Below are positions 670 to 6,370 of a stretch of 11,047 bases of DNA, piece after piece. The translations under genes were made by a program, and so were the position numbers. The stretch is from positions 1-11,047 of the forward strand of contig JBFMBF010000033.1 of the NCBI GenBank assembly GCA_040755315.1, in the 5' to 3' direction. Below the pieces are notes generated by a model. That model was not told where the DNA came from, did not search any database, and worked only from the letters and a program-made list of their open reading frames with translations. Source of the DNA: Candidatus Hadarchaeota archaeon. GTDB lineage: Archaea; Hadarchaeota; Hadarchaeia; Hadarchaeales; Hadarchaeaceae. How positions within the stretch are numbered: position 1 is the first letter of the stretch; each line of letters opens with the position of its first letter.

Positions 670-1932
670 ATGCCAGAAGAAAAAACAATCCACGACCCCG
701 TCCACGGCAGCATGACCTTGAGCGGGATAATCCTCGACCTGATCGACACCGCGGAGGTGCAGCGGCTCCGCGGAATTCGACAGCTCGGCCTGGCGAACGT
801 GGCCTTCCCGGGCGCCAACCACTCCCGCTTCGAGCACGCCCTCGGTGTGGGTCACCTAGCTTGGAAAGTCGCGAACAAGCTTGGTCTGGAGGCTGGCGAG
901 AAAAACACCCTGCAGGCCGCCGCCGTCCTCCATGATGTCGGCCACGCCCCTTACTCCCACACACTGGAGCACCTGATGGTCGACTACCTCAAGAAAGACC
1001 ACATGGAAATCACTGGGCAGATCATCCAGGGGAAGATGAGCATGGCTCCGGAAAATGAAGCCGCTCTGAGGAAGCTTGGGATATCGCGGGCGAACCATGT
1101 CTTGAAAAAATGGGGAGTTTCTTCAAGGGAGGTTTCCCAGCTATTAATGGGGAAGCACAGGCGCCGCTATCTCGGTGATCTAATCCACAGCGAGGTTGAC
1201 GTTGACCAGATGGACTACCTGCTGAGGGACTCTCACTTCACGGGCGTTGCTCTCGGGATGGTCGACATGGACAGGCTTATGAGGACACTGGTCATACACG
1301 GCGGCCGCTCATGCATAATGGCTAAGGGGGTCGAGGCGGTGGAGGGGCTCCTGACGGCGAGGGGTCTCATGTACAGCTCTGTTTATTACCATCACACCGT
1401 GCGGGTGGCAGAGGTTATGCTGATGAACGCCGTTGACAGGGCCCTCGAGAAAAGCGGCTTCAACCGCAACTTCTTCCTCATGGACGACGCGCAGCTGATG
1501 GAGAGACTCAGTTCCGTCGGAGGCTATCCCGCGGAGATGGTCATGAGGCTCCGCTACAGGCAGCTTTTCAAGTCTGCCCATGTAGAGACCAGGAAAGAGC
1601 TGAGCAAGTCGGAAAAGCAAAAGTACCTGTCGCGCTTCGGCAAGTGGAGCATGGTGCGCGAGGCCCAAGACGAGATAGCTGACGAGGCCGGGGTAGGGCG
1701 CGGCAGTGTGCTGCTGGATGTGCCGATTGTGGACATCATAACTTCGGAGCCGAGGATTGAAAAGGTCGACATGCCGGTGATCCAAGAAGGGAAGATTTCC
1801 AAGCTTTCAAAAGTTTCGCCGCTCGCCACGGCTCTGAAGCAAAGGCAGGCCCCAAGGTACATGCTCCGCGTCATCTCTGAGGACAAGCTGGTGGAAAAAG
1901 TCAAGCGGGCCGCCGAGCGGGTTTTGAGTTAA
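670..1932 (+). CDS. HD-domain phosphohydrolase (COG1078; SAMHD1/EF1143-like dNTP triphosphohydrolase family)
   Basis: Motifs IHDPVHG, QRLRGIRQLG, HSRFEHALG, LHDVGHAPYSH, DVDQMDYLLRD, VYYH. ATG 670 is preferred to GTG 661 from promoter spacing. Confidence 0.92.
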   Translation: MPEEKTIHDPVHGSMTLSGIILDLIDTAEVQRLRGIRQLGLANVAFPGANHSRFEHALGVGHLAWKVANKLGLEAGEKNTLQAAAVLHDVGHAPYSHTLEHLMVDYLKKDHMEITGQIIQGKMSMAPENEAALRKLGISRANHVLKKWGVSSREVSQLLMGKHRRRYLGDLIHSEVDVDQMDYLLRDSHFTGVALGMVDMDRLMRTLVIHGGRSCIMAKGVEAVEGLLTARGLMYSSVYYHHTVRVAEVMLMNAVDRALEKSGFNRNFFLMDDAQLMERLSSVGGYPAEMVMRLRYRQLFKSAHVETRKELSKSEKQKYLSRFGKWSMVREAQDEIADEAGVGRGSVLLDVPIVDIITSEPRIEKVDMPVIQEGKISKLSKVSPLATALKQRQAPRYMLRVISEDKLVEKVKRAAERVLS

Positions 1933-4373: not shown

Positions 4374-4782
4374 TTGGAAAAGAAAACAGTCGGAATCATC
4401 GGGTTAGTCGGCGGGATTTTGGCGCTGGTTAGTGTCGCGCTGCCTTGGATGTCCATAACGGTTTTTGGTTTCAGTGCAAGCTTTTCTGGTCTTGACGTCT
4501 TGACGTCTTGAACGCAGGCGGAGAAGGTCTGGTGATGGCCGTGCTGGTGCTTATCGGCGGAATCTTGGCGTTGCTGGGCGCGCTTGGGTCACTTACTGCC
4601 AAGATACCTGCAAAGCTTCTGCCAATTGGGGGAATACTTGCTATTGCTGGGGAGATATGGGCAGTCGCAAGAATAGGCGTACTGGCCTCGGAGCCGGTGT
4701 CGTTGGTTTTGGAGTTTACATAGGAATAGTCGGGGCAGTACTTGCGCTGCTGGGATATTTCGGCGCTCGAGGAAAGAAGTAG
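4374..4782 (+). pseudogene. Small ~4-TM membrane protein gene with two frameshifts
   Basis: RBS GGGGTGA, then TTG 4374: MEKKTVGIIGLVGGILALVSVALPWMSITVFGFSASFSGLDV, stopped at TGA 4509-4511 after an 8-bp duplication. It continues in a second frame (LNAGGEGLVMAVLVLIGG...WAVARIG), then a third from about 4681 (TGLGAGVVGFGVYIGIVGAVLALLGYFGARGKK, TAG 4780-4782). Confidence 0.8.
4489..4511 (+). repeat. 8-bp tandem repeat (GTCTTGAC x2 + GTCTTGA)
   Basis: Directly visible. Removing one unit restores the reading frame. Confidence 0.9.
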
Positions 4783-4799
4783 CTTCGCAAGCATTGAGG

Positions 4800-4873: not shown

Positions 4874-4882
4874 AAATAAAAA
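4874..4882 (-). terminator. Oligo-U terminator of the ncRNA
   Basis: UUUUUAUUU immediately follows ...AUCCCCGCCA on the minus strand. Confidence 0.7.
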
Positions 4883-5113
4883 TGGCGGGGATCTCGACCC
4901 ATCCCTTACTTTCTCAACGAGCTTGCAAATCTCGACCACTTTGCTCGCCCGCTGTTTTTTCAAGTCAGGGCCTTTCTCCCGCAGTCGATGCCTTTCCCCG
5001 ATCTTCCCGGAGATTATCCGCGTCCTTCCCCGGTTTTTCGCCCGGGTTTTTACACGGCGCCCCGTTGCCCTTAGGCTTCGGTTCGGCCTCCTCTGCAGGT
5101 TTCCATCCCCGCC
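4883..5113 (-). ncRNA. Unassigned ~231-nt structured non-coding RNA
   Basis: 5' GGCGGGGAU (5113-5105) pairs perfectly with 3' AUCCCCGCC (4892-4884). Four further nested helices and several hairpins are joined by A-rich linkers. TATA box at -30..-23, U-tract right after the 3' end, and no credible ORF. Confidence 0.8.
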
Positions 5114-5135
5114 GACATTACTTGGGTCAATCGGC

Positions 5136-5155
5136 TATTTAAAATTTTTTTAAAA
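5136..5155 (-). promoter_or_regulatory. BRE/TATA promoter of the ncRNA (AT-rich region shared with the divergent GTPase gene)
   Basis: The minus strand reads AAAAAAT-TTTAAATA. TTTAAATA (5143-5136) sits at -30..-23 relative to 5113, the canonical archaeal spacing. Confidence 0.75.
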
Positions 5156-5230: not shown

Positions 5231-6370
5231 ATGCCAACCAACGTGTCACCGGAGTACATCAAGGCCGAGCAGAAGTACCAGCAAGCGCGCACGATTGAGG
5301 AGAAAATCGCGGCCACTGAAGAACTCATAAGGGCCGCGCCCAAACACAAGGGAACCGAGAAGCTGCTGAGTACCCTGAAGCGGAGGCTAGCCAAGCTGCG
5401 CAGGGAGCTCGAGGAAAAGCGGGAGCGCAGGTCGGGGCGCGGCGGAGGGCAGCCTTTCGCCGTGAAGAAGGAGGGGGCGGCGCAGGTGGCGCTCGTCGGG
5501 ATGCCCAACTCAGGCAAGTCCACGCTGCTCAGGATGCTGACGAGCGCAAAGCCGGAGGTGACCGACCACCCATTTGCCACGACAGAGCCGGTGCCTGGGA
5601 TGATGCAGTTTGAGGATGTTCAGATCCAGCTCGTGGAAATACCGGCGATTGTGGAGGGGTCGAGCGTCGGGCGGGGTCTCGGGGCCAAACCACTGAGTGC
5701 CGCAAGAAACGCAGACGTCGTCGCCCTTGTCATAGACTCTTCCTCGAACGCGGTCAGGCAGGCGCGGACCTTGATCGAAGAGCTTGAGACGGCAGGGGTG
5801 AGACTTAACAAGCGGCCGCTTGCGGTTTCCATCGAGCGCAGGCCTGCTGGAGGGGTTGAAATAAAGGGAGGAGGTTTTGTCGATGGGGGCGAGGAAGAGG
5901 TGAAAAAAATTCTCATCTCCCACCGAATCCACAATGCATTCGTGATCGTGGAAGAGCCGGTCACGGCGGATGAGTTTGAAGGTGTCCTGGAGGAGGCTTC
6001 CGTTTACAGGCGCGCATTCTTTATTGTCACAAAGTCCAACTCCCGGGGCGCGGCCGAGTCTTTGAGTCGAGAATTCAGGGACTTTCCGATAATTCTTTCC
6101 AGCAGCGAACCAGGGAAGGTCAAGGCTGAAATCTACTCCGGGATGAACCTGATCAGGATTTACACCAGGCGGCCTGACGAGGATCCTGCAAAGCGCCCGC
6201 TTGTAATCCCGAAGGGATCAACAGTTTCTGACGTGGCTGGGGCCGTGCACAGGGATTTCAAGGAGAGCCTGAAGTTCGCCAGGGTCTGGGGATCAACAAG
6301 ATTCCCGGGGCAACAGGTGAAAAGGGATTACATCCTCTCGGACAGAGACATCGTGGAGCTTCACCTGTGA
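5231..6370 (+). CDS. DRG/OBG-family GTP-binding protein with C-terminal TGS domain
   Basis: N-terminal helical domain with PKHKGTEKL; G1 GMPNSGKST; G2 HPFATT; PGMMQFEDVQIQLVE; TGS domain (GSTVSDVAGAVH..FARVWGS..GQQV..DRDIVELH). RBS GGTGG. Confidence 0.92.
   Translation: MPTNVSPEYIKAEQKYQQARTIEEKIAATEELIRAAPKHKGTEKLLSTLKRRLAKLRRELEEKRERRSGRGGGQPFAVKKEGAAQVALVGMPNSGKSTLLRMLTSAKPEVTDHPFATTEPVPGMMQFEDVQIQLVEIPAIVEGSSVGRGLGAKPLSAARNADVVALVIDSSSNAVRQARTLIEELETAGVRLNKRPLAVSIERRPAGGVEIKGGGFVDGGEEEVKKILISHRIHNAFVIVEEPVTADEFEGVLEEASVYRRAFFIVTKSNSRGAAESLSREFRDFPIILSSSEPGKVKAEIYSGMNLIRIYTRRPDEDPAKRPLVIPKGSTVSDVAGAVHRDFKESLKFARVWGSTRFPGQQVKRDYILSDRDIVELHL

Follow-up and report, generated by a model that had tools for sequence, protein, structure and literature searches.

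Evidence for a new family of multi-domain structured RNAs with several paralogues in Hadarchaeota

To our knowledge, very few large and intricately folded archaeal RNAs exist beyond rRNA, tRNA, the RNA of ribonuclease P (RNase P), and that of the signal recognition particle (SRP). In bacteria, such a profile has marked RNAs with unusual biochemistry including OLE, raiA, ROOL, and GOLLD. The present analysis concerns a 231-nt G+C-rich RNA gene read from the sequence of a Candidatus Hadarchaeota archaeon (assembly GCA_040755315.1, contig JBFMBF010000033.1) within a stretch of 11,047 nt, hereafter the window, where it runs from position 5113 to 4883 on the minus strand. In kind, it comes closest to the orphan "ornate" RNAs of bacteria (raiA of approximately 200 nt, OLE, ROOL, and GOLLD), which share with it a high complexity for their size, many conserved unpaired nucleotides, and independent transcription. 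However, the ornate RNAs are bacterial or phage-borne while the RNA described here is archaeal, was found in one phylum, and is represented by several paralogues at housekeeping loci, and the Rfam models of the ornate RNAs gave no match in the window. Among archaeal RNAs, it resembles RNase P RNA (RF00373) as a multi-domain molecule of approximately 200–300 nt with a terminal helix, conserved unpaired purines, and a stand-alone gene with a promoter, and SRP (7S) RNA (RF01857), which is abundant and of housekeeping type, as a stable RNA closed by both of its ends. Archaeal RNase P RNA also exists as a small type-T form.

The gene very likely belongs to a real, independent, and new family of structured RNAs, with compensatory base changes exceeding those of all controls. 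The minus strand folded into a single closed structure with a minimum free energy (MFE) of -106.9 kcal/mol (z -7.15) that was equaled by 0 of 200 dinucleotide shuffles, compared to -74 kcal/mol (z -2.85) for the plus strand. An alignment of 57 distinct copies (A1; MAFFT, mean column identity 79%) yielded an RNAalifold consensus of 60 pairs, 44 of which carried compensatory changes on both sides, with at least three such pairs in each of the nine consensus helices. In A1, 96.9% of the cells were paired compared to 83.9% in column shuffles and 34–45% when the 3' partners were slid by 1–3 columns, and the covariation score was 0.464 compared to 0.210 (shuffled) and 0.068–0.095 (slid); 0 of 500 column shuffles attained the observed value on any of the five measures. 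A separate alignment of 70 distinct copies gave the same picture, in that the top 17 column pairs by mutual information were all helix pairs. G-U alternatives were frequent among the copies (e.g., CG 40/UG 17 and GC 26/GU 17), and since these variants can pair on the minus strand only and the z scores differ as above, the minus strand is taken as the RNA strand. An earlier reading of the same DNA without database searches (hereafter the sequence-only reading) had proposed a stable, multi-domain, independently transcribed archaeal noncoding RNA (ncRNA) with G-U pairs fitting the minus strand alone, and this proposal is borne out by the fold, by covariation in all nine helices, which that reading had suggested examining, and by a promoter and terminator kept among the copies.

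The segment from 5113 to 4883 reads as an independently transcribed unit with a putative archaeal TATA promoter of its own and an oligo-U end (Table 1). The TATA octamer TTTAAATA at 5143–5136 occupies -30 to -23 relative to G5113, where it had already been placed, and a TATA-like A/T octamer starting 26–32 nt upstream was found in 69 of 72 aligned family copies, with the box taking the forms TTAAATA, TATAAATA, or TATTTATA in homologues. Most of 30 homologues aligned with their flanks also have an A-rich run ahead of the TATA-like box, and such a run would take the role of a B recognition element (BRE). At the other end, the single A at 4883 is directly followed by UUUUUAUUU, again as first read, and a T-run lies no more than 15 nt from the 3' end in 52/72 copies. 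The family falls into three length types, the window copy being of type 1; an oligo-T tract ends every type-1 copy, and the copies without a T-run are of type 3, for which the model places the 3' end loosely. Outside the RNA, only the TATA-like box and the T-run were common to the 30 flanked homologues. The homologues anticipated by the sequence-only reading were recovered by BLAST with a query of 291 bases around the gene against 61 related genomes, giving full-length matches of 68–94% identity, often two or three per genome. These alignments began at query positions 37–38 (window 5113–5114) and ended at 270–289, mostly at 272–279 (to approximately 4879), consistent with the match of R1, a covariance model of the 57 copies, to the window at 4884–5113 (250.6 bits).

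Table 1. Coordinates of the RNA gene, its putative transcription signals, and its structural elements in the window.
Feature	Positions	Strand	Basis
RNA gene, type 1 of the family	4883..5113	-	fold z, BLAST conservation limits, covariance model R1 score
A-run directly 5' of the TATA box, BRE-like position	5145..5151	-	sequence
TATA box UUUUAAAUA, 3' end 22 nt before G+1	5136..5144	-	sequence
Putative oligo-U termination signal UUUUUAUUU	4874..4882	-	sequence; directly after the single A at 4883
P1 5' strand GGCGGGGAU, partner 4892–4884	5105..5113	-	MFE, consensus
P1 3' strand AUCCCCGCC	4884..4892	-	MFE, consensus
5' domain, P2 and P2a around three hairpins	4978..5099	-	covariation
Hairpin a: CCG/CGG and GCC/GGC, tetraloop UAAG (UACG in other copies)	5062..5081	-	helix 3
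Hairpin b: CCGUGU/ACGCGG, 5x5 internal loop AAAAA/GAAGG, CCCGG/CCGGG, loop CGAAAAA	5018..5057	-	helices 4 and 5
Hairpin c: UCUCCG/CGGGGA, purine-rich loop	4995..5013	-	helix 6
3' domain: P3a GGCCC/GGGUC, P3b, internal loop, P4, P5	4896..4972	-	helices 7–9
Internal loop 5' side GAAAAAA, facing the AGUA strand	4955..4961	-	A154–A157 invariant in 57 copies
Internal loop 3' side AGAAAGUA; family consensus GAGUA	4907..4914	-	conservation
P5 apical loop GUGGUCGAGA, type 1 hallmark	4930..4939	-	conservation

The small protein gene that the sequence-only reading had kept as an alternative, or a chance GC-rich fold, would agree with two plus-strand open reading frames (ORFs) of 97 and 76 codons that overlap the RNA gene. 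However, no reading frame was open in more than 30 of the 57 copies, variability by codon phase was flat (0.164/0.160/0.177) without a three-base period, and most gap runs (528 of 587) were of 1 nt. The covariation, the missing conserved frame and codon period, and the single-base gaps together indicate a structured RNA rather than a protein gene, leaving the coding or chance explanation a negligible probability.

A comparison with catalogued RNAs upheld the earlier suggestion of an uncatalogued class. Rfam 15 (4227 models) gave 0 matches at the gathering score in the whole window and 0 matches on eight homologous loci. Relaxing the threshold to E<=10 between 4700 and 5300 added only two chance-level matches on the opposite strand, to U2 at 14.4 bits (gathering score 46) and to HTT-AS1_3 at 12.5 bits (gathering score 70). 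A full-text search on structured ncRNAs of Hadarchaeota and archaea, covering listings and abstracts, returned no description of the RNA, and it is not mentioned in the available part of a 2026 preprint on prokaryotic intergenic clusters (10.64898/2026.10.21.760802), the supplementary cluster tables of which might include the family. The RNA is accordingly judged to represent a new class, matching no Rfam family nor any described kind of function; the further suggestion of the sequence-only reading that it is ribozyme-like or a ribonucleoprotein (RNP) scaffold stays a guess.

A divergent RNase P, SRP, or other known housekeeping RNA would share its size, the terminal helix formed by both ends, and a promoter of its own. 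This identity was rejected, and its probability is minimal, since no RNase P or SRP model matched at 5113–4883, the canonical genes lie elsewhere, and there was no cross-match. The source genome (1.21 Mb, 50 contigs, 86.6% complete) encodes a canonical RNase P RNA at C11:20624-20912 (182.4 bits) and a canonical SRP RNA at C19:11995-12303 (140.1 bits), and R2, a broader model of the family, reached no more than 5.4 bits at the RNase P locus and 9.1 bits at the SRP locus with filters off. Unlike RNase P RNA, the Hadarchaeota RNA is multi-paralogous, with several copies per genome, and had no match to the RNase P model at E<=10; unlike SRP RNA, it lacks the long helix 5 and, as the sequence-only reading had noted, the helix-8 motif. 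That reading had also found the RNase P conserved regions to be missing, and its exclusion of both RNAs is sustained.

A tRNA mimic or tRNA-derived RNA, serving as a decoy, sensor, or substrate of tRNA-processing or translation factors, is improbable. The resemblance to tRNA and to the tRNA-like domain of tmRNA lies in a terminal helix of 7–9 bp followed by one unpaired base and in the 3' end GGGUCGAGAUCCCCGCC (GUCGAGGGGUCGAACCCCGCC in type 2), which is similar to the variable loop, T arm, and acceptor strand GUCGAGGGUUCGAAUCCCUCC of tRNAs from the same genome. Against this, ARAGORN called 0 tRNA or tmRNA genes in the window, and the Rfam tRNA and tmRNA models gave nothing at E<=10 between 4700 and 5300. 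The T-arm-like string is split over two helices, in that helix 7 joins GGGUC to GGCCC, 70 nt upstream, and helix 1 joins CCCCGCC to the 5' end, such that no T-arm hairpin is formed; furthermore, a reading frame as in tmRNA is missing, the base after P1 varies between A, U, and G, and the likeness of short strings may be due to chance. In the genome as a whole, ARAGORN identified 27 tRNA genes, many of them long with intron-like inserts and ambiguous anticodon calls, and many with the 3' CCA encoded.

Overall, P1 meets a 5' domain and a 3' domain in a three-way junction. P1 has 9 bp in the MFE structure and six central pairs in the consensus, three of them compensatory (helix 1). The 5' domain is closed by P2 (5099–5093 with 4984–4978) and its GCC/GGC extension P2a (5087–5085 with 4992–4990), together forming helix 2 with 11 pairs, nine compensatory, and 97.1% of the cells paired. 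Within it, helix 3 of hairpin a has six pairs (three compensatory, 99.4% paired), helices 4 and 5 of hairpin b have three compensatory pairs each and flank a conserved 5x5 internal loop, and helix 6 of hairpin c is compensatory in 6/6 pairs while its sequence is variable and unlike between the types of the family. The 3' domain consists of helices 7, 8, and 9 with 3, 3, and 11 compensatory pairs, respectively, beginning with P3a (4972–4968 with 4900–4896; helix 7, 99.6% paired) and P3b (CUU/AGG, 4964–4962 with 4906–4904).

Of the helices drawn by hand in the sequence-only reading, P1, P2 (CCUGCAG/CUGCGGG), P4 (CAGCGGGC/GCUCGUUG), and P5 (GCAAA/UUUGC) recur in the RNAalifold consensus with compensatory changes. 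P3 (CCCUGACUU/AAGUAAGGG) had been set in the wrong register, as covariation favors GGCCC/GGGUC plus CUU/AGG and leaves the conserved AGUA unpaired. Among four small hairpins drawn inside P2, CCCGG/CCGGG stood, and AGGC/GCCU, ACGG/CCGU, and CGGA/UCCG clashed with the covarying helices CCG/CGG plus GCC/GGC, CCGUGU/ACGCGG, and UCUCCG/CGGGGA, which displace them. A candidate pseudoknot between GGUCG of the P5 loop and CGAC before the P2 3' strand was also dropped, as genome family f2 keeps the loop and not the CGAC.

In the 57 copies, 44 positions are invariant, many of them adenosines left unpaired in the junctions, the hairpin b internal loop, and the loop facing AGUA (A13, A31, A37, A42, A49, A65–67, A78–80, A141, and A154–157), among which A65–67 and A78–80 belong to hairpin b, and the purine-rich junctions are rich in invariant adenosines. 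On the 3' side of the internal loop in the 3' domain, which is kept in all three types, A204, U206, and A207 never vary and G205 rarely does. This AGUA/GAAAA internal loop may resemble the AGUA/GAA loop-E (bulged-G) motif; the loop-E motif is a common protein or tertiary docking site. In the P5 loop, G178, U179, C180, and G181 are invariant and the remaining positions at least 90% conserved; four exact sites complementary to the loop were located in the genome and none was informative; the assembly contains no 16S rRNA gene. In the 70 type-1 copies, the third base of the hairpin a tetraloop (A/C) covaries with the ninth P1 pair (U-A/C-G), with C accompanying G in 32 copies, A accompanying A in 23, and C accompanying A in 13. 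This covariation may reflect a tertiary contact or simply common descent, and it was set aside as evidence for the fold.

On the sequence and model evidence, the RNAs form what appears to be a Hadarchaeota-restricted set of paralogues with a shared core that differ in the P5 loop and hairpin c. R1 matched in 51 of 66 Hadarchaeota genomes, with one to six matches per positive genome, and 70 matches were full length at 196 bits or more. By genome family, it matched in 39 of 45 genomes of f1 (in addition to the source genome, which is also positive), 6/6 of f2, 1/1 of f3, 3/3 of f5, 1/9 of f4, and 0/1 of f6. The weaker matches were shorter paralogues, with type 1 measuring approximately 230 nt, type 2 approximately 203–215 nt, and type 3 approximately 197–211 nt, in addition to a divergent member of 205 nt. 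Common to all types are P1, P2, the three hairpins, the A-rich junctions, and the motifs GGAAAAAG, GAAAAG, GAGUA, and GGUCGAA, and the types differ in hairpin c and the P5 tip, which carries GUGGUCGAGA in type 1 compared to short GNRA-type loops in types 2 and 3. In genus g7, a type-2 copy stands in tandem approximately 90 nt upstream of a type-1 copy, as in L005 with a 203-nt type 2 at 1212–1414 and a 231-nt type 1 at 1502–1732 (plus strand); the same g7 tandem occurs in L003, L004, L007, L008, and L130, with a TATA-like box and a T-run on each copy.

The source genome holds three members, including the window copy. A 196-nt member at C16:9391-9586 on the plus strand (L134 1201–1396; 80.3 bits with R1) has its own TTTAAATA box and T-run and is flanked by a small membrane-protein gene and, in convergent orientation, by an aldehyde:ferredoxin-oxidoreductase-like gene. 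The divergent 205-nt member at C18:8992-9196 on the minus strand (L229 3028–3232) lies directly upstream of polB and was detected only when the model filters were disabled (38.8 bits, with E 4.9e-10 in a small search space); since the default filters missed it, default searches undercount the family.

The distribution outside the phylum was assessed with an exact pattern from the type-1 3' domain that fits 44 of the 57 aligned copies. Scanning one genome per species (185,579 species) identified 86 stretches, and R1 confirmed 54 of the 80 loci examined. The confirmed loci comprised 51 titled Hadesarchaea, Hadarchaeota, Hadarchaeales, Hadarchaeum, or Hodarchaeaceae, two titled "uncultured archaeon", and one titled "Methanobacteriota archaeon". 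The 26 loci with bacterial titles were attributed to chance, and L154 (20.8 bits) alone among them had a model match. Metagenome contigs contained 106 pattern matches, of which R1 likewise confirmed 54 of the 80 loci examined, and viral contigs contained 0 matches to the same exact pattern. A model search of five archaeal genomes outside the order found no family members; a 13.4-bit R2 match in one of them was taken as chance, falling in protein-coding-looking sequence.

Gaps also occur inside the phylum. R2 gave no match on ten R1-negative Hadarchaeota genomes, with default filters that can miss divergent members, and the negatives include G050 (90% complete, 10 contigs) and G010 (95%, 9 contigs), which shares its genus with G017, a genome with two copies. 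The region upstream of the DRG GTPase gene, occupied by type 1 in relatives, contained no such gene in G010 or G018. The patchiness is read as loss or strong divergence in some lineages, and it is not taken as proven absence since divergent members can escape the filters.

The genomic context bears on whether the gene acts in trans or as a leader in cis. Names of neighboring genes were read off the printed sequences, with DRG alone named by Pfam. Type-1 copies occupy two loci, one between a divergent DRG GTPase gene (5231–6370 in the window) and a convergent geranylgeranyl-reductase-like gene, and the other between an aldehyde:ferredoxin oxidoreductase (AOR) gene and polB; type 3 is located near genes for glutamine synthetase (GlnA), glutamate dehydrogenase (GDH), MoeA, or a cation-efflux (CDF) protein. 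The loci are syntenic and many neighbors convergent, which argues for vertically inherited, stand-alone, trans-acting genes rather than leaders or RNAs of mobile elements, and action in trans is considered likely.

A cis-acting leader or riboswitch for the downstream gene, notably polB, would account for the 10 loci in f1, f2, and f5 at which the 230-nt copy consistently lies 9–116 nt upstream of polB on the same strand, and for the presence of another P1-closed structured RNA at the polB spot even in genomes without a detectable member. It is nevertheless very improbable for the window copy, and in the family as a whole a consistent co-oriented downstream gene was not found, the polB-side paralogue being a possible exception. 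The nearest downstream ORF is convergent for 41 of 72 copies, no credible same-strand gene follows the window copy, every type-1 copy ends in oligo-T, conservation stops at P1, and the A/T-rich tract after the T-run can serve as the promoter of the next gene. A 107-codon ORF at 4471–4794 on the minus strand of the window was rejected as a candidate for such a gene, having no Pfam match and being probably the antisense shadow of a plus-strand membrane-protein gene. The latter is represented by three overlapping plus-strand ORFs in different frames between 4374 and 4782 (4374–4511, 4508–4723, and 4657–4782), which read as one small glycine/leucine-rich membrane protein seemingly frameshifted twice; this looks like a pseudogene or assembly errors.

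Other strongly folding RNAs with a GGCGG.../...CCGCC closing helix were observed at the polB-upstream spot of genomes without a detectable member, namely in G010 (L230 1321–1468, plus strand, 148 nt, -56 kcal/mol) and G023 (reverse complement of L228, 1272–1463, 192 nt, -108 kcal/mol). These matched nothing in Rfam and did not clearly resemble the family, and Rfam at E<=0.1 gave nothing usable on the polB-upstream loci. A conserved 66–71-nt element with a closing helix of the GGGGCGAC/GUCGCCCC type was also observed in three genomes, approximately 40–60 nt ahead of the RNA next to polB (L230 1205–1275, plus strand, and the reverse complements of L229 1143–1208 and L228 1139–1208, all with provisional strand); Rfam gave no match to it at E<=0.1.

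The several related copies in a genome and their patchy occurrence among genera might also suggest a role as guide or scaffold in a mobile element or defense system, in the manner of an omega-RNA, bridge RNA, retron RNA, or Y RNA with Ro60. The syntenic housekeeping sites, the lack of any transposase, reverse transcriptase, or nuclease seen among the neighbors, the missing variable guide-like tail, and the 0 viral contigs make this highly improbable. The Y RNAs and bacterial YrlA, which associate with Ro60 (Rsr), are, like the Hadarchaeota RNA, multi-paralogous, closed by a terminal stem between their two ends, and marked by short tRNA-like patches. However, the Hadarchaeota RNA is approximately twice their size and had no Rfam Y-RNA match, and the TROVE domain of Ro60 (PF05731) was found in 0 of the 66 Hadarchaeota genomes by a search that was positive in 2 of 14 named control genomes (Deinococcus and Bacteroides).

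Evidence on expression came from relatives. No sequencing run contained at least half of the stretch's sampled words, and two DNA runs (X1 and X2) covered parts of the stretch at a depth of approximately 3–8. In two metatranscriptome runs from one estuary study, 13 short contig pieces (37–164 nt, depth 8–56) matched only 4956–5095, in the conserved 5' domain, and none matched the flanks; the pieces continue unlike the window and like hairpin c of the relatives. This gives a hint that the copies of relatives are abundant RNAs.

Unpaired junction adenosines usually pack helices together, and since many of the invariant positions are such adenosines, one compact tertiary fold is expected. In the proposed explanation, the stand-alone gene would give rise to a stable, trans-acting, and compactly folded ncRNA, the conserved core of which would adopt a single tertiary fold as the functional unit and would most likely act as the RNA heart of an RNP, and the swapped apical modules (the P5 loop and hairpin c) may provide the paralogues with different partners or specificities. 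This explanation as a whole, from the stand-alone gene of a new family to a likely RNP core, is given about an even chance, and the preference for an RNP scaffold over an RNA-only catalyst or ligand binder is tentative, falling somewhat short of that.

An RNA-only machine, i.e., a new ribozyme or ligand-binding RNA in which the junction adenosines form the active site or pocket and proteins are dispensable, is unlikely. It would be in keeping with the dense invariant unpaired nucleotides in junctions and internal loops, the three-way core with purine-rich strands, the GNRA-type apical loops of types 2 and 3, which are typical of intramolecular docking, and a complexity on par with that of the ornate bacterial RNAs. 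However, no cleavage-site signature and no Rfam ribozyme or riboswitch match were found, and several paralogues per genome with lineage losses would be unusual for a core catalyst.

Several observations weigh against the proposed trans-acting RNP core. The RNA-library support consists of assembled contigs of relatives from a single study, in which strand, ends, and level are not readable, DNA carry-over is possible, and the uncovered parts prove nothing. The copy upstream of polB at the 10 loci above is the sole copy detected in f2 and f5, and a link between the polB-side copy and polB expression is conceivable. The neighboring genes share no RNA-related theme and a protein partner was not found among them. 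Finally, no copy was detected in several well-assembled genomes, including G010 and seven genomes of g15, and the RNA is therefore either dispensable or diverged past detection in these lineages.

The alignment and the models make the RNA testable in vitro and allow systematic annotation of the family. A more far-reaching possibility, considered doubtful, is that the family comprises phylum-specific self-folding RNA machines, forming a new ribozyme or tRNA-directed class with a shared core and interchangeable apical modules. In such machines, and with the same doubt, the core would be the three-way junction, the AGUA/GAAAA loop, and the junction adenosines, and each paralogue would have a different substrate or partner. 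If true, a new large functional RNA would be added to the very short archaeal list of rRNA, tRNA, RNase P, and SRP. In the Hadarchaeota, as uncultured archaea of the subsurface with small genomes, an abundant lineage-specific RNA machine would give a lead into biology that is hidden to protein annotation.

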